A stretch of 44,515 bases of DNA from the UHGV virus genome UHGV-1858859. One strand, 5' to 3'. Each line of letters begins with the position of its first letter. The stretch's first letter is position 1. The notes beneath the pieces are model-generated. The model searched no databases and was not told the origin of the DNA. It saw nothing but the letters and a program-made list of their open reading frames with translations. Positions 1 through 40,423 of this stretch are shown here, piece after piece. This stretch comes from a virus. The position numbers and the translations under genes were made by a program.

Positions 1-459
1 ATCGCGGATTGTGTTGCTAACTTATCGACAGGGGTTATTTACGCAGGCGCCCCCGGCAGCGATATAGCAGAGCTTGGTAATGGTTGGTATCGATTTACAG
101 AAACGGTAGCTATACGCCAGGGTGGCGCGTCTTCTCTGCTTTTAGCGTCATGGGTGTACAACAACTCCGCCGTTGGTTCATTTGTCGGTGACGGGGTTAG
201 TGGTATATTAGTGTGCGCGATGCAAATAGAAAAATCACCGTTTGCCACATCGCCGATAGTAACCGACGCATCACCATCCGCACGCCCCGCGGCATCGGCA
301 AAAGTAGCCATGAATGGTGCGACAAGCATCGACATTACATACTCTGATGGTTCCACCGTAAACGTGCCCGCAGTAGATAACTACGCCACCATCCCCCAAG
401 CGGATTCGGCGTGGGGTAGTAAATATATCACCCGTATTGATTTTAATGTGGACGGTTAA
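1..459 (+). CDS. 3' portion of a tail-module protein (5' end lies outside the window)
   Basis: Frame 1 is open from position 1 to the stop at 457-459; sits directly upstream of the minor tail / tail tip genes. Confidence 0.5.
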   Translation: MADCVANLSTGVIYAGAPGSDIAELGNGWYRFTETVAIRQGGASSLLLASWVYNNSAVGSFVGDGVSGILVCAMQIEKSPFATSPIVTDASPSARPAASAKVAMNGATSIDITYSDGSTVNVPAVDNYATIPQADSAWGSKYITRIDFNVDG

Positions 460-6140: not shown

Positions 6141-6166
6141 AAGGCCCCAAACGGGGCCTTTTCTCT
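6141..6166 (+). terminator. rho-independent terminator (hairpin also usable from the minus strand)
   Basis: aaggcccc-aaac-ggggcctt stem-loop followed by ttctc; 5 nt after the tailspike stop. Confidence 0.6.
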
Positions 6167-8858: not shown

Positions 8859-8990
8859 TCATTCCAGCACCCACAGATAAATCGCGATGAACATACCTAA
8901 TACGGCGACCATCATGCCGTATTGGCCCTCGTGACAGTAGACACCGGCGGCAAATCCCGCCAGTACCGCGATAATCAGTTTACTTGGCAT
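8859..8990 (-). CDS. small hydrophobic protein (43 aa)
   Basis: MPSKLIIAVLAGFAAGVYCHEGQYGMMVAVLGMFIAIYLWVLE; its ATG overlaps the polymerase stop codon. Confidence 0.3.
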   Translation of the reverse strand: MPSKLIIAVLAGFAAGVYCHEGQYGMMVAVLGMFIAIYLWVLE

Positions 8991-12971: not shown

Positions 12972-13000
12972 AACTATAATAGCCAACTATTCAGGTGTCA
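12972..13000 (-). promoter_or_regulatory. sigma70-like promoter TTGACA-N17-TATAGT with embedded palindrome
   Basis: Minus-strand reading ttgaca cctgaatagttggctat tatagt; contains ATAATAG-ccaa-CTATTCA (plus strand 12975-12992). Confidence 0.6.
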
Positions 13001-15435: not shown

Positions 15436-15464
15436 ACTATAATAGTGAACTATTCACATGTCAA
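15436..15464 (-). promoter_or_regulatory. sigma70-like promoter TTGACA-N17-TATAGT with embedded palindrome
   Basis: Minus-strand reading ttgaca tgtgaatagttcactat tatagt; contains ATAATAG-tgaa-CTATTCA (plus strand 15439-15456). Confidence 0.6.
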
Positions 15465-15468
15465 TGGG

Positions 15469-15497
15469 CTTTTCTAAAATAATTAATATGGTACTAT
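15469..15497 (+). promoter_or_regulatory. candidate rightward extended -10 promoter with degenerate motif copy
   Basis: tggTACTAT (TG-n-TACTAT) at 15489-15497 with a poor -35 (cttttc); CTATTCA half-site at 15494-15500; about 30 nt upstream of the HTH gene. Confidence 0.35.
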
Positions 15498-15528
15498 TCA
15501 CATATCAACTAACTAAGGAGTAATTGTC

Positions 15529-18892: not shown

Positions 18893-18921
18893 TTGCACAC
18901 CCCAACATAATAGGATACTAT
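18893..18921 (+). promoter_or_regulatory. sigma70-like promoter TTGCAC-N17-TACTAT with embedded palindrome
   Basis: ttgcac accccaacataatagga tactat; motif ATAATAG-gata-CTATTCA at 18907-18924; a 36-bp block is repeated as an exact inverted copy at 40388-40423. Confidence 0.65.
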
Positions 18922-18946
18922 TCACTTATCGAAACGAGACAGATGA

Positions 18947-20462: not shown

Positions 20463-20491
20463 TTGCACACTTGGATAGAATAGGCTACTAT
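20463..20491 (+). promoter_or_regulatory. sigma70-like promoter TTGCAC-N17-TACTAT with motif copy
   Basis: ttgcac acttggatagaataggc tactat; CTATTCA at 20488-20494; followed by leader cgaacgagaggagagacagaag-ATG. Confidence 0.65.
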
Positions 20492-20522
20492 TCATTTACA
20501 CGAACGAGAGGAGAGACAGAAG

Positions 20523-24912: not shown

Positions 24913-25145
24913 TTACCAGCATTCCGAACCTGATTAAAGAATACGGCACGATGGCGGAGACGTGCCGACGGACCGGCATCAACGAAATGACGATTGCAAA
25001 GTACAGCAAAGACGTTAACTGCGAGCGCCACGTAATTTATAACAACCGTCTTATGACGCATGTTAAGACAAGCCCGGTGTTATTCACTCGCCGCGGTATC
25101 ACTAAAACTGAGCAACGCATTGCTAAAGAGGAGAGTGAGGAGTGA
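24909..25145 (+). CDS. putative small DNA-binding protein
   Basis: HTH-like segment AETCRRTGINEMTIAKYS. Confidence 0.35.
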   Translation: MITSIPNLIKEYGTMAETCRRTGINEMTIAKYSKDVNCERHVIYNNRLMTHVKTSPVLFTRRGITKTEQRIAKEESEE

Positions 25146-25307
25146 AAAAGTTAACTGTCTACCGGAAAACCGGCGCTACGTCAGAACTCGATGTTTTCAG
25201 TGTAACGCAGTGTGAGAAGTTCTGGTGCGCAGAAACATTCAACGGAGAAGTGAGAATACCAATCGCACTGGCAGACGGCGGCGATATAACCGAATAGTCA
25301 CACCACA

Positions 25308-25331
25308 AGCCCTCTACGGAGGGCTTTTCTG
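25308..25331 (+). terminator. rho-independent terminator closing the early region
   Basis: agccctc-tacg-gagggct hairpin followed by tttct. Confidence 0.55.
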
Positions 25332-25424
25332 TACATCCTGCCTAATCCCCTTATATAATCCCTTTAGACGCGTAGGGCGCGTCTGGTGCGCTCTGATGGT
25401 CAGACGCATATGCAAGGGGATTCT

Positions 25425-25970
25425 ATGAAGCTGAAACTCAAGCAGCCATCGCCAGAGGTGGTGCAAGCTGCACATGAAGAAGCCGTTAGCGCAAACCGTC
25501 GCCGTAAACGACCGCGCGGTAAACAGAGCATTTATCAATCATCCCGTAATTCCGCCGCGTTGTGGGACCCGGACTATTGCGATGCATTGATTCGTTTCTT
25601 CGACCGCACGTCATGGGAGCTTGTACCTACGTCTAAGGGTGACGAACGCCCGCTGATTCAGGACAAACCGCCGTCACTGGCCCGCTTTGCCTTACGCATC
25701 GGCGTCACTATCCCGATTATTAAGCTGTGGCTGCGCGAGATTCCCGCATTCGCAGAAGCATGGGAGACAGCGCAGGCATTGGAAGAGGCATACTTCACTG
25801 AGACAGGGGCCGCAGGTATCTCTGCTACGTTTGCCGCTGCGAAACTTGGCCTTGGCAAAGAGAAACCAGTTGAATCCGCCGAAGAAACGGCACCGACTGA
25901 GATTATTTTCAGTGTTGCGGAGCCTGTAGGTAAAATTGTAACAACGAACATGGGTGAGGTAGAGGAATGA
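25425..25970 (+). CDS. terS: terminase small subunit
   Basis: Immediately upstream of and overlapping terL; basic N-terminus and HTH-like segment; start chosen at ATG 25425 with AAGGGG RBS. Confidence 0.55.
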   Translation: MKLKLKQPSPEVVQAAHEEAVSANRRRKRPRGKQSIYQSSRNSAALWDPDYCDALIRFFDRTSWELVPTSKGDERPLIQDKPPSLARFALRIGVTIPIIKLWLREIPAFAEAWETAQALEEAYFTETGAAGISATFAAAKLGLGKEKPVESAEETAPTEIIFSVAEPVGKIVTTNMGEVEE

Positions 25971-27217
25971 GTATTCAGCTATCCGCGCCGCAGGCACTGT
26001 TCCTGAATTGTGACAACAAATACAAGGCCTACGTAGGCGGCTTCGGTAGTGGCAAGACGTTTGTCGGCTGCCTTGACCTGCTTACGTTTATGCTTAAGCA
26101 CCCCGGTACGCGCCTTGGTTACTTCGGCCCGACCTACCCGGCTATCCGCGACATCTTCTACCCGACATTCGAGGAAGCTGCTAACCTCCTGGGCCTTGAT
26201 GTGCTGGTTAAATCCGGCGACAAAGAGGTCGTCGTTACGAGAGGTAAGACAGTAATCGGTACAGTAATCTGCCGTTCGATGGATAACCCAGGCTCTATCG
26301 TCGGTTTCAAAATAGCCGCGGCGGTCGTTGATGAACTGGACGTTCTGAGCCGCGAGAAAGCGGAACTGGCGTGGAACAAAATCGTAGCCCGTATGCGTCT
26401 GGTTATCCCTGGAGTGGTAAACCACATCTCCGTTACCACGACACCGGAGGGATTCAAGTTCGTCTACGCCAAGTTCAAAGAGAACCCGACACCGAGTTAC
26501 TCAATGGTGCAGGCTTCCACCCACGAGAACGCGCGATTCCTGCCGCCTGACTACATTAGCTCGCTGACCGAGACTTACCCAGCGCAACTGATTAACGCGT
26601 ACCTGAATGGGGAGTTCGTTAACCTGACATCCGGCAGCGTCTACTACGCCTACGACCGACGTAAGCATCGCAGCAAAGAGACAATCCAACCGGGCGACAC
26701 GCTGTACATCGGGCAGGACTTCAACGTTACGAAGAACGCCAGCGCCGTGTATGTGCAACGTAAAGACGGCTGGCACGCGGTAGCAGAACTGAAGGGCCTG
26801 TTCGATACGCCAGATACCGTGCGTGTGATTACCGAGAAGTGGAAGTCGCAAGGCCACCGCATCGTCGTTTACCCGGACGCCAGCGGCAAGAACCGCAAAA
26901 CCAACTCGGCGTCAATCTCCGATATCGCCTTACTACAGCAGGCCGGTTTTGATGTTCGCGCTAAATCCGCCAACCCACCGGTTAAAGACCGTGTTTTAGC
27001 CGTGAATACCGCGCTGGAAAAAGGTAAGCTGTGGGTTAACGACCACTTATGCCCTGAGATAGCGAAGACGCTGGAGCAGCAGGCATATGATGATAACGGA
27101 GAGCCTGCTAAAGACGGCGTCATTGACCATATGGCGGATGCTCTCGGCTATCCTGTAGTTTATGAGATGCCGGTGGTTAAACCAGTAATCAACATCCCGG
27201 TGACTTTCGCACTTTAA
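25967..27217 (+). CDS. terL: terminase large subunit
   Basis: Walker A GGFGSGKT, Walker B AAVVDELD, C-terminal nuclease-like acidic motifs (GQDFN, DASG, DHMADALG). Confidence 0.85.
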   Translation: MSIQLSAPQALFLNCDNKYKAYVGGFGSGKTFVGCLDLLTFMLKHPGTRLGYFGPTYPAIRDIFYPTFEEAANLLGLDVLVKSGDKEVVVTRGKTVIGTVICRSMDNPGSIVGFKIAAAVVDELDVLSREKAELAWNKIVARMRLVIPGVVNHISVTTTPEGFKFVYAKFKENPTPSYSMVQASTHENARFLPPDYISSLTETYPAQLINAYLNGEFVNLTSGSVYYAYDRRKHRSKETIQPGDTLYIGQDFNVTKNASAVYVQRKDGWHAVAELKGLFDTPDTVRVITEKWKSQGHRIVVYPDASGKNRKTNSASISDIALLQQAGFDVRAKSANPPVKDRVLAVNTALEKGKLWVNDHLCPEIAKTLEQQAYDDNGEPAKDGVIDHMADALGYPVVYEMPVVKPVINIPVTFAL

Positions 27218-28721: not shown

Positions 28722-28744
28722 AGCCCCGAAAGGGGCTTTCTTAT
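28722..28744 (+). terminator. stem-loop / partial terminator after the portal gene
   Basis: agcccc-gaaa-ggggct hairpin followed by ttcttat. Confidence 0.45.
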
Positions 28745-30983: not shown

Positions 30984-31014
30984 AAGGCCCCATAATGGGG
31001 CCTTAGTTTTATTT
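30984..31014. terminator. bidirectional rho-independent terminator
   Basis: aaggcccc-ataat-ggggcctt hairpin with T-runs on both strands (agttttattt on plus, ttttatcatc on minus); lies between convergent genes. Confidence 0.6.
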
Positions 31015-31530
31015 AAATCGCGCAGGCATTAACACCATAAAGGCCGTGTTTGAAAATTGTATTTTGCATCCTCTGGTTTGGTCCTGGAAATCGAAACGAG
31101 CAATTTCATTTTTGTATGCCTTAGAAATCTTGTACGCGTCTGCCAAATAGCGCAGAGTGAACCCTATACTGTCGACAACACCCGGTGTGATGTGCGCCAC
31201 GCGTCTCCAGTCAGGAAAGTTTCCTTCTACAACATCTACCGGAAGTGTACATATAAGCGCACGATTATCGTCATAGAAAGATACACTGCCGTTGTCGTGG
31301 TTTACCTCTGCGTAGTTAAATTTAGAAGGCTCTCTCCCTTTGATGTCTATGAGAGTCCCTTTCTCAACGTTGGTCTTCACATTGTCGCAGAACAATCTAT
31401 GACCGTCCGTAGACACTATCAATCCTTCAGGGTCTATGTAAAAAGCGTTCAAATAGTAGCGAACATCATTTTTAGCCCTGCATATTTTCGCCCCTACATA
31501 CGCAGGGAAAGTAATTACTGTAGTAACCAT
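31009..31530 (-). CDS. truncated DnaN (DNA polymerase III beta sliding clamp)-like protein
   Basis: DVRYYLNAFYIDPEGLIVSTDGHRLF, VVEGNFPDWRRV and C-terminal AFMVLMPARF match E. coli DnaN segments (DVRYYLNGMLFE...ATDGHRLAV, VDGRFPDYRRV, AYVVMPMRL) recalled from memory; only 173 aa against 366; AGGAG RBS and own promoter. Confidence 0.6.
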   Translation of the reverse strand: MVTTVITFPAYVGAKICRAKNDVRYYLNAFYIDPEGLIVSTDGHRLFCDNVKTNVEKGTLIDIKGREPSKFNYAEVNHDNGSVSFYDDNRALICTLPVDVVEGNFPDWRRVAHITPGVVDSIGFTLRYLADAYKISKAYKNEIARFDFQDQTRGCKIQFSNTAFMVLMPARFK

Positions 31531-31556
31531 TTCTCATCTCCTGTTTAAGTTAACTG

Positions 31557-31585
31557 AATAGTACCCTATTATGTTGGTGCGCGCA
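31557..31585 (-). promoter_or_regulatory. sigma70-like promoter TTGCGC-N17-TACTAT with embedded palindrome
   Basis: Minus-strand reading ttgcgc gcaccaacataataggg tactat, with ATAATAG-ggta-CTATTCA. Confidence 0.6.
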
Positions 31586-38740: not shown

Positions 38741-38766
38741 AAGGCCCCTTTCGGGGCCTTTTTCTT
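38741..38766. terminator. rho-independent terminator (near-identical copy of the one at 6141)
   Basis: aaggcccc-tttc-ggggcctt followed by tttctt; also terminates the convergent minus-strand cassette. Confidence 0.6.
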
Positions 38767-38995
38767 ACTCATCAATATTACTTCGGTACTCCCGTAACTT
38801 CTCCAGACTTTCTATTGCTTCCGCTAAGTCGGTTCCGGTGTCCTTGTGCCCGCGAAGGCCCATACACAGAAGTTTCTTCAACGCGTGCTGTAGTGCCGGG
38901 TCGCGGATGTCGAAGGCGCGTAGCACATCATAAACGTCTACTGTCATTGTGCTGCCGTGAGTATTTGTCATTGTGCGGTTGTATTTTGAAGTCAT
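38765..38995 (-). CDS. hypothetical protein
   Basis: 76-aa ORF, last gene of the minus-strand cassette. Confidence 0.45.
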   Translation of the reverse strand: MTSKYNRTMTNTHGSTMTVDVYDVLRAFDIRDPALQHALKKLLCMGLRGHKDTGTDLAEAIESLEKLREYRSNIDE

Positions 38996-40122
38996 CCCAG
39001 CATCTCCGGTGAAATAGTTAAACGTGCCACCTCCCCATATTCGGCGCTATAAGTTATCACGTTAGCACTACGACCGGACATCCAGCCCCCTCGCGATGCG
39101 TAAGCATCTTTCGCGGCCAGGGTTCGGTGTTGTTCGACTACCATATTGCGGCTTTCTACTAATTTCTGATGATGTAGATGCCCTACATGAGCGTAGCTGT
39201 ATGTGCTTTCTCCAAAAGCCTTACGGAATTTAGAAATCATTACTGACTCTATGGCGTCGAATCTCGCACGGTGTCCATGATGCATGAATAGCGTAGTTTT
39301 CCCGTGCTGGACCATCTTGTATACGTCGGGGGAGGTGTCCACAAATACGCGAGGTTCGTTATCGTACAATGTACAGAACATTTCGGCGAGCCATACAGAG
39401 CCTACAGGGTCGTGGTTACCTTGAACTATTAAGAGTTTGACTGTGTGATGTTTAACAAGCGCCATATCGACAACACGACGCACCATACGAATCATGTAGC
39501 GAACTAGTTTCTGATAGCGAGTATCGGCGTCTAACACATGACGCGACTCAGGGGTAACGGCATCAAGACTATCGAAGTGCGCGAAGTCTCCTAGCAGGTT
39601 AATAACTCCTGTTCCCGCGTCTGGTGCTTTCTGGAACGCTGCGTCAAACCAACGGGAGAACAGGTCTTCCGCAATCTTCATGTCCCAGTCGTCGCCGCTC
39701 TCGTCAGCCCAGGCCAGCATACCGAGATGGAAATCAGACACAGTGTAAAGATTGAGTAGTTTATCGTCGCGTTTGGCGCGAACGGCTTTAACAGGAGCAA
39801 CGGGGGTAATCTCCGACTTCATGCCTTCGATTACGGCCTTCATTAACTCGACCTGACGTTCTGCGTCAGTGTCGGTCTTAACCCATTGCAGTTTAGTGTT
39901 GCCGAACTCGTCCACCAGAGACGACGTACCTTTAATCTTGTAGCCGTCAGGCACAAGGTGACTAACGTCGCGACCGTGGCCTACACCTTTCTTAGCCAGC
40001 TTCGCTTTACGGATACGGATAACGCGGTCTGAGATTCCGTACTTACGTGCGATATCAATAATTTTTGTTCCGGCGTTCAATTCTTCCCGTAACTGTTCGT
40101 CGGTTATTTTCTTATGAGCCAT
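38992..40122 (-). CDS. calcineurin-like metallophosphoesterase with N-terminal HTH
   Basis: Metallophosphatase motifs GDFAHFD, GNHD, GHLHH; N-terminal HTH-like segment KIIDIARKYGISDRVIRIRKAK. Confidence 0.7.
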   Translation of the reverse strand: MAHKKITDEQLREELNAGTKIIDIARKYGISDRVIRIRKAKLAKKGVGHGRDVSHLVPDGYKIKGTSSLVDEFGNTKLQWVKTDTDAERQVELMKAVIEGMKSEITPVAPVKAVRAKRDDKLLNLYTVSDFHLGMLAWADESGDDWDMKIAEDLFSRWFDAAFQKAPDAGTGVINLLGDFAHFDSLDAVTPESRHVLDADTRYQKLVRYMIRMVRRVVDMALVKHHTVKLLIVQGNHDPVGSVWLAEMFCTLYDNEPRVFVDTSPDVYKMVQHGKTTLFMHHGHRARFDAIESVMISKFRKAFGESTYSYAHVGHLHHQKLVESRNMVVEQHRTLAAKDAYASRGGWMSGRSANVITYSAEYGEVARLTISPEMLG

Positions 40123-40353: not shown

Positions 40354-40394
40354 GGGGTAGCTCCTGTTTGAGTTAACATTGTTGGTGTAAGTGA

Positions 40395-40423
40395 ATAGTA
40401 TCCTATTATGTTGGGGTGTGCAA
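40395..40423 (-). promoter_or_regulatory. sigma70-like promoter TTGCAC-N17-TACTAT, exact inverted copy of the 18893 promoter block
   Basis: Minus-strand reading cttgcacaccccaacataataggatactattcactt is identical over 36 nt to plus strand 18892-18927. Confidence 0.65.

Follow-up and report, generated by a model that had tools for sequence, protein, structure and literature searches.

A conserved two-hairpin leader predicted at the head of the packaging genes of a Kagunavirus-like siphophage

Introduction

Structured leaders close to a promoter are a well-known kind of element, and several described systems resemble the one analyzed here, which lies directly upstream of the terminase small-subunit gene (terS) in the virus genome UHGV-1858859 (the window, i.e., the whole stretch of 44,515 nucleotides that was analyzed). 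The 5′ untranslated region of ompA, 133 nt long, contains an mRNA stabilizer made of two hairpins between the transcription start and the Shine-Dalgarno (SD) sequence, the first 5′-terminal and the second beside the ribosome-binding site. Escherichia coli mRNAs are stabilized by 5′-terminal stem-loops (work of Emory, Bouvet and Belasco cited in PMC3997798), and a hairpin at the 5′ end is the condition for blocking 5′-end-dependent decay (PMC3997798). In phage HK022, putL consists of two stem-loops that begin at +3 of the PL transcript, act in cis and require only host RNA polymerase (RNAP) and no protein factor (PMC9378689). The nut sites of phages lambda and P22 contain boxA and boxB, the latter a small promoter-proximal RNA hairpin with a conserved loop that N binds, and in the mom gene of phage Mu the Com protein opens a hairpin that hides the SD. 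Finally, in characterized headful phages the packaging (pac) site is found within terS or shortly before it: inside the gene in P22 (gene 3) and P1, and at its 5′ end in SPP1 (pacL-pacC-pacR), where pac overlaps the terS promoters.

The terS leader of the window, which we find to consist of two adjoining hairpins (H1 and H2) just after a predicted sigma70 promoter, shares traits with each of these systems. As in ompA, two hairpins stand between the predicted transcription start and the SD, and H1 lies at or within ~2 nt of the predicted 5′ end, a likeness that holds only if transcription starts 7 ± 1 nt past the −10 element; the leader is shorter than that of ompA (~60 nt), bears no sequence relationship to it, and has loops that are conserved across genera. 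Like put, the leader has two stem-loops starting at about +1 just after a sigma70 promoter, but put is ~70 nt long and has bulged stems, a minor-groove triplex and, at putL, a −10-like pause element, none of which is conserved here when the two are compared by description only (PMC9378689); no similarity in sequence is known between them. The likeness to nut is that of a small promoter-proximal hairpin with a conserved loop; however, boxB is a GNRA-like pentaloop on a 5-bp stem, whereas the loops here are A/UGG and UGG triloops. We identified no N-like protein, and a boxA-like CGCUCUGA is not conserved outside Kagunavirus. The element adjoins terS in a headful phage, as pac sites do, yet the known pac sites, to which TerS binds, are either direct repeats or asymmetric sequences of double-stranded DNA and not covarying hairpins with strand-specific wobble. 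As at mom, upstream sequence can sequester the SD and hairpins 5′ of the SD could bind a protein, but SD masking here is lineage-specific and needs RNA from upstream of the promoter, and we found no Com-like protein. Rfam 15 lacks the motif, and the literature searched makes no mention of it.

Results

The initial annotation described inverted repeats just upstream of terS as a candidate packaging or regulatory site. The repeats are real: reading the sequence and running a repeat finder both placed them at 25366-25409, where the plus-strand RNA is predicted to fold into two hairpins. H1 (25365-25385, + strand) has the 5′ arm AGACGCGU (25366-25373), the loop AGG (25374-25376) and the 3′ arm GCGCGUCU (25377-25384), and its base is closed by an extra U25365.G25385 pair. 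H2 (25386-25409, + strand) has a lower stem GUGCG (25386-25390)/CGCAU (25405-25409), a bulged C25391, and an upper stem UCUGA (25392-25396)/UCAGA (25400-25404) around the loop UGG (25397-25399), which gives the apex GAUGGUC; this upper part is the inner palindrome TCTGA-TGG-TCAGA (25392-25404) that had already been recognized. A 91-nt segment folded at −35.6 kcal/mol, compared with −24.3 ± 3.0 for its shuffles (z −3.8, with 0 of 200 shuffles as good). The only match of a two-hairpin covariance model in the window was at 25364-25411 on the + strand (79 bits), and neither this model nor scans for the promoter and hairpin pattern found a second copy of the element in the genome. No covariance model of Rfam 15 matched the element, whether in the window (threshold E ≤ 10) or in seven related loci (threshold E ≤ 1). 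When we asked about a host origin, no match to the element was found in 5,426 E. coli genomes, and scanning viral contigs with the 14-mer GGCTTTTCTGTACA returned mostly chance matches and no new contexts. Known motifs that we considered and set aside (CsrA GGA, RfaH ops, the hammerhead core CUGAUGA, the T7 primase site TGGTC and Chi) were not conserved across lineages.

We collected homologous regions from 50 IMG/VR contigs through TerS, from GenBank phages, and from further viral and metagenome contigs, and obtained 48 distinct leaders. The module is present in Kagunavirus, Jerseyvirus, Cornellvirus FSL SP-031, TS6, Enterobacter phage phiEap-2 and Serratia phage Tsm2, and likewise in Dhillonvirus (jat and relatives), Edwardsiella phage eiAU-183 and the uncultured contigs L195, L196, L200 and L260. 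Its order is constant (TATAAT, 5-8 nt, H1, 0-2 nt, H2, 3-13 nt, SD, ATG), the distance from the −10 element to the ATG is 74-82 nt, and a terminator precedes it in most lineages. In every lineage H1 starts 5-8 nt past the −10 element; it has a 7-8 bp stem and an A/UGG triloop. H2 has a lower stem of 3-5 bp, a bulge or small internal loop, an upper stem of the form NNNGA/UCNNN, and a UGG triloop. The GAUGGUC apex is found in 47 of the 48 unique leaders (GAUGAUC in L008), and the H1 loop is AGG or UGG in all sequences but one, which has GGG. The H1 stem reads AGAUGGC/GCCGUCU in Dhillonvirus, GGCGGGCC/GGUCCGCC in eiAU-183, AAGGCCC/GGGCUUU in Tsm2 and ACGGGGG/CCCCCGU in L196, as against AGACGCGU/GCGCGUCU in the window. 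The upper stem of H2 occurs as UCUGA/UCAGA, UAUGA/UCAUA, GCCGA/UCGGC and UGGA/UCCA.

Covariation carries the case for an RNA structure. In an ungapped composite alignment with a constant anchor (20 distinct stem sets, 18 pairs, 360 cells), 97.2% of cells were paired, a fraction inflated by our choosing the H2 lower-stem register for maximal pairs; shuffles reached 67.7 ± 1.9, with 0 of 500 as high, and sliding the partners by 1-3 columns dropped pairing to 19-56%. Both sides had changed in 16 of the 18 pairs (8 of 8 in H1, 8 of 10 in H2), yielding 35 extra pair types, and the G-C and A-U pairs at the H2 apex were invariant; as sequences within genera are closely related, such cell counts overstate independent events. 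RNAalifold, run on an independent MAFFT alignment, predicted H1 and the upper H2 stem de novo. In plain MAFFT alignments the stems of distant lineages were out of place, and the ungapped composite took their place for the pair counts; covariance-model alignments with junk minus-strand rows were likewise left out of the counts. Wobble was strongly one-sided, with 34 G.U cells versus 2 A.C cells (12 versus 2 distinct position/type events), and pairing reached 97.2% on the + (terS sense) strand versus 88.3% on the − strand. One-sided wobble together with the fixed distance from the −10 element points to the transcript, and not to protein-read double-stranded DNA or a cruciform, as the form under selection. 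We therefore hold with high confidence, on comparative grounds, that the hairpins represent a selected sense-strand RNA structure.

Some leaders had unusual arrangements. In L196 (IMGVR_UViG_3300045988_050407, 472-549) two GAUGGUC units stand in tandem, CGAUGGUCG followed by GCCGAUGGUCGGC, a natural duplication of the apex. A mosaic leader (L093/L036, IMGVR_UViG_641201315_000001) joins a Jerseyvirus-type terminator and hairpins to a Kagunavirus-type promoter spacer, which implies recombination within the 130-bp module. In Salmonella phage PSP2-22 (ON886116; circular, labeled 'UNVERIFIED_ORG') the terS promoter and leader directly follow the 3′ end of terL, without the terminator, which suggests misassembly or a rearrangement of the packaging module.

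The repeats had been described as a heptamer, CAGACGC/GCGTCTG, present three times in alternating orientation. All three copies are present; however, the first copy is AGACGC(G) preceded by T and thus matches CAGACGC at only 6 of 7 positions. AGACGCG (25366-25372) complements CGCGTCT (25378-25384) at 7 of 7 positions, GCGTCTG (25379-25385) complements CAGACGC (25401-25407) at 7 of 7, and AGACGC-N3-9-GCGTCT occurs once in the window versus 0.03 expected. Jerseyvirus, Cornellvirus and phiEap-2 have CATACGC in place of the third copy, CAGACGC; the compensating C to A change sits in its partner arm within H2 (TCTGA to TATGA), and the other heptamers show no such change. A three-heptamer repeat model is ruled out by what is found in Jerseyvirus and Cornellvirus. 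We also rejected a switch based on alternative pairing of GCGTCTG (25379-25385) with CAGACGC (25401-25407), as this pairing is not kept outside Kagunavirus. Judged across genera, the conserved units are the two hairpins.

Immediately upstream of the hairpins lies a predicted sigma70 promoter, so the regulatory half of the original proposal has fared well. The TATAAT reported there within 25351-25359 is present at 25354-25359 (+ strand), matches the sigma70 consensus, and forms the −10 element of a comparatively well-supported promoter whose −35 element, missed at first, is TGTACA (25330-25335, + strand; 4 of 6 consensus matches, 18-nt spacer). By rule-of-thumb spacing, transcription is predicted to start at A25366 (+ strand), 7 nt past the −10 element. 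TGTACA-18-TATAAT matches the consensus at 10 of 12 positions and is the sole + strand match of this quality in the late region; TGTACA-N17-19-TANAAT occurs once in the window versus 0.06 expected. We measured per-site diversity in 43 Kagunavirus and Jerseyvirus sequences, obtaining 0.0 for the −35 hexamer, 0.04 for the −10 hexamer, 0.208 for the spacer, 0.186 for the discriminator, 0.049 for H1 and 0.047 for H2; terS codon positions 1, 2 and 3 gave 0.049, 0.040 and 0.29. The promoter hexamers are thus constrained like codon positions 1 and 2, and the drift of the spacer nears that of third positions. Among 35 leaders from ~9 lineages, positions T1, A2, A4 and T6 of the −10 element are unchanged and only positions 3 and 5 vary (TACAAT, TATACT), the pattern expected of a working −10 element. 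Other genera have TTGCCT or TTGCCA as the −35 element at 17 nt, and the lineages with the poorest −35 elements (jat, L195 and L196) all have an extended −10 TG (TGaTATACT in L196). The comparison thus gives good support to a sigma70 promoter that drives the terS leader.

The promoter is preceded by an intrinsic terminator (25307-25329, + strand), also missed at first, that closes the upstream unit of small open reading frames (ORFs). Its stem, AAGCCCTC/GAGGGCTT (25307-25326; 8 nt, 100% complementary), encloses the loop TACG and is followed by a T-rich tail. It escaped a simple scanner, whose T-run rule it fails because its U run overlaps the stem. In Jerseyvirus the stem shows a compensatory change to AAGCCCGC/GCGGGCTT, the homologous hairpin in phage Shashou carries the annotation 'terminator', and diversity across the terminator is 0.072.

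An outer inverted repeat had likewise gone unnoticed: AATCCCCTT (25344-25352) pairs with AAGGGGATT (25414-25422), which includes the SD AAGGGGA (25414-25420, + strand) preceding the terS ATG (25425-25427). There are two anti-SD copies on the + strand, AAUCCCCUU (25344-25352) and a second, also new, AAUCCCUUU (25357-25365), and they overlap the spacer, the −10 element and the discriminator; they would occur only in RNA reading through from upstream. The SD pairing probability was 0.96 in RNA that includes the promoter region versus 0.48 in RNA from the predicted start. The SD/anti-SD duplex beat shuffles in the window (p 0.02), in Dhillonvirus jat (p 0.018) and in L196 (p 0.0025); with only these 3 of 9 lineages significant, we rejected the stem as a universal feature and kept it as a lineage-specific one.

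The AUG in the apex of H2 opens a 10-codon frame, MVRRICKGIL (25396-25428), whose UGA overlaps the terS AUG (AUGA), and the same arrangement occurs in Cornellvirus. An upstream ORF starting at this AUG was set aside as a candidate: in the other lineages examined the frame stops 4-17 nt before the terS AUG, or beyond it, and with both length and stop varying it is probably not conserved.

Discussion

What might the leader do? We lean toward the reading that it acts in cis to control how stable the mRNA is or how it is translated, whether or not a factor binds it. In such a scheme the terminator ends the upstream unit and the host sigma70 promoter follows directly; the transcript would start within ~2 nt of H1 and run through the adjoining H2 and a short linker into the terS ribosome-binding site. 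The hairpins would act in cis, as sense-strand RNA, on terS and the genes behind it. Most likely, the base-paired 5′ end would shield a long mRNA from 5′-end-dependent decay (RppH/RNase E), as in the ompA leader, and the paired leader would give the ribosome-binding site a fixed and open setting. What the conserved loops contact is probably a conserved factor, most likely of the host; a host partner (RNAP, ribosome or RNase) is the likelier one because phage proteins diverge and the loops do not. In this Kagunavirus, the anti-SD copies in read-through RNA would pair with the terS SD, and terS would be poorly translated from such RNA.

Several points count against this reading. Besides the inflated paired fraction and the overstated number of independent events noted above, SD/anti-SD pairing is no better than in shuffles in six other lineages. 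A passive protective hairpin needs no conserved loops; that GAUGGUC and WGG are fixed here hints at a partner specific to them. Finally, the sole Kagunavirus RNA-seq paper is gene-level only, so the transcription start used here is a predicted one.

If the loops do have a specific partner, RNAP itself is one candidate, and the leader could direct processive antitermination, with the nascent two-hairpin RNA modifying RNAP so that it passes the terminators within the unit, either directly, like HK022 put, or with a small phage protein, like lambda nut and N. Two adjacent stem-loops from about +1 of a sigma70 transcript recall putL at +3 of PL (PMC9378689), loops that stay fixed while phage proteins diverge fit a conserved host partner such as RNAP, and farther downstream the same strand has intrinsic terminators at 28722-28737 and 30984-31004. 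Yet the element is only ~45 nt long with short regular stems, whereas putL, at ~70 nt, has a triplex and bulged stems; a −10-like pause element is not conserved (TATGAT is limited to some genera), the boxA-like CGCUCUGA is restricted to Kagunavirus, the loops are triloops and not GNRA-like pentaloops, and the element has no Rfam match. There would also be little need for long-range read-through, because later structural genes have their own promoters at ~31555 and 40392. We consider antitermination unlikely. The broader proposal that leaders with GAUGGUC and WGG loops form a new class of promoter-proximal RNA that binds host RNAP or another conserved host factor is similarly unlikely. Were it true, a host-factor leader common to Guernseyvirinae, Dhillonvirus and Eiauvirus would reprogram transcription or decay of the packaging operon without a phage protein. 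Should the loops bind RNAP or an RNase, the leader would follow HK022 put as only the second factor-independent kind of leader RNA in phages.

Alternatively, the partner could be a phage protein, in which case the leader would be a translational operator: TerS, through its Arg-rich N-terminus, or a Com-like activator would bind the H1 and H2 loops and repress or activate terS translation. This differs from the stability-or-translation reading in its effector only, and whatever probability we grant it is already included there. Immediately before the SD, at 3-13 nt, variable stems carry conserved loops; the N-termini of TerS proteins are Arg/Lys-rich, and the SD is masked in the longer RNA. On the other hand, the candidate phage proteins diverge strongly while the loops are constant, and we identified no candidate RNA-binding protein among the neighboring ORFs, which makes a phage effector doubtful.

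The initial annotation had also raised the possibility that the repeats are recognized by TerS as a packaging site. TerS would then bind them at the DNA level, and the headful series of packaging would start from this pac site. The location is suitable, since known headful pac sites lie in or near terS, and TerS has a basic N-terminus and resembles Sf6 gp1. We scanned synonymous sites within terS for a strongly conserved embedded element as a better candidate, and none emerged (minimum 0.17); with no clear valley in that scan, we rejected an embedded pac inside terS inferred from suppressed synonymous variation. Headful packaging is documented in this phage group (PMC10783031, PMC6776780), and its genomes are reported as permuted and redundant with random ends, or as 'pac' class without a position (PMC9825357, PMC9409062 Table 2, PMC10783031, PMC6776780). 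In the literature searched on Kagunavirus and Jerseyvirus we found no mapped pac site or transcription start, and published PhageTerm analyses found no terminus.

The comparative evidence runs against TerS recognition. The selected unit is the hairpin and not the heptamer: covariation preserves pairing rather than sequence, with wobble on the sense strand only, the third heptamer is not kept as a heptamer, and arms vary where loops are fixed; this pattern marks a folded RNA and not double-stranded DNA that a helix-turn-helix protein reads. Nor does the element track the type of TerS. The leaders of phiEap-2 and Cornellvirus are 76-79% identical to that of the window and closest to Jerseyvirus in H2, yet the TerS of these phages is Dhillonvirus-like, only 29% identical to the window TerS over 119 residues, and different in its putative recognition helix. 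Conversely, Citrobacter phage K1M has a related TerS and no intergenic leader, and in 11 environmental contigs with distant TerS relatives the motif was absent even with the model filters off. The position of the element is instead fixed relative to the −10 hexamer. On these comparisons, the element follows the phage backbone and not TerS specificity, and a pac site here is improbable.

Genome records that start inside the element reflect annotation convention. Several open at a false terS start or at a false 'RBS' that is in fact the H1 loop. The Shashou record (PhageTerm 'pac') starts inside the H1 loop, but we rejected this as a clue to a physical end, as the record was opened at the annotated 'RBS' (1..3) of an over-long terS; record starts at −39 or −10 were discarded as physical-end clues for the same reason, both being annotation conventions.

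That the palindromes are DNA operators, to which a dimeric repressor would bind at +1 to +44 and so keep the terS promoter blocked while infection is in its early phase, is still less probable. Two palindromes do lie directly downstream of a near-consensus promoter that is otherwise without visible control, and an operator-like motif family is found at the other promoters of the phage; however, half-site sequences vary and only pairing is kept, an asymmetry of the G.U type has no meaning in double-stranded DNA, conservation lies in the centers (loops) and not in the arms, and the genome's own operator motif is absent at the terS promoter. Hardly credible, finally, is the reading that H2 is plain coding sequence of a 194-aa terS starting at GTG 25386, as in many GenBank records: the frame is open from there, gene callers choose this GTG, and the matching codon is ATG or GTG in all Guernseyvirinae examined, but the A/G variation at 25386 is explained by pairing with U25409, the upstream ATG of Dhillonvirus is out of frame, a strong SD precedes 25425 and none precedes 25386, and Kagunavirus/Jerseyvirus differences in the 13-codon extension from GTG 25386 to ATG 25425 are all non-synonymous, whereas codons after ATG 25425 change synonymously. 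From these patterns, the true terS start is ATG 25425. In GenBank relatives of the window (the records we call L051, L172 and L175) terS is annotated at least 39 nt too far upstream, so that H2 is included.

The leader is an RNA motif, not catalogued before, at the start of the packaging operon in several common siphophage groups of E. coli, Salmonella, Serratia and Edwardsiella, and many of the phages carrying it serve in therapy, in biocontrol or as synthetic-biology chassis. As a compact object (~45 nt with two conserved loops), it lends itself to the study of packaging-gene control in virulent siphophages. The comparison also corrects a widespread annotation error, in which terS is called at least 13 codons too long and records are opened inside the element, and it cautions against taking inverted repeats beside terS for pac sites.

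Genomic context and other motifs in the window

The window is, by its similarity to described genomes, a Kagunavirus-like E. coli siphophage (Guernseyvirinae): over 25100-26000 it shares 86-96% identity with Kagunavirus genomes, among them those of fEg-Eco19, Ivi and K1-dependent coliphages. The terS gene (25425-25970, + strand) encodes 181 aa and matches PHROG 3064 'terminase' (E 1e-71), with a weak profile match to Sf6 gp1; its product has a basic, Arg/Lys-rich N-terminus (NRRRKRPRGK). It is followed by terL (25967-27217, + strand), which encodes Terminase_6N/6C domains, and then by the portal gene. On the 5′ side of the terS region lie lysis genes and a series of small ORFs, one of them NinH-like. 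The start of a packaging/head transcription unit is the best explanation of the region.

A 20-bp motif, TGAATAGTAnCCTATTATGT, which contains the inverted repeat AATAG..CTATT, occurs seven times in the window, a number reached by 0 of 100 shuffles. Five copies are on the − strand (12974-12993, 15437-15456, 15481-15500, 18905-18924 and 20475-20494) and two on the + strand (31555-31574 and 40392-40411). The motif provides the −10 element (TATTAT or TATAGT) of sigma70-like promoters, several of which have a TTGACA −35 element; the terS promoter is without it. In one paper it is given as a 'phage RNA polymerase promoter', although no phage RNAP gene is apparent. We regard the seven copies as a probable operator-promoter family that serves a phage regulator.

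At 6141-6160, 30984-31004 and 38741-38760 there are bidirectional terminator hairpins, all three nearly identical, of the form AAGGCCCC-loop-GGGGCCTT. The latter two adjoin minus-strand genes inside the structural region (31009-31530 and 38992-40122), which suggests that these genes are cassette-like insertions. A second GATGGTC in the window (8890-8925, − strand) lies in the loop of an 8-bp hairpin, AATACGGC...GCCGTATT, downstream of a minus-strand gene of 1050 aa; this hairpin resembles a terminator and probably has no relation to the leader motif.

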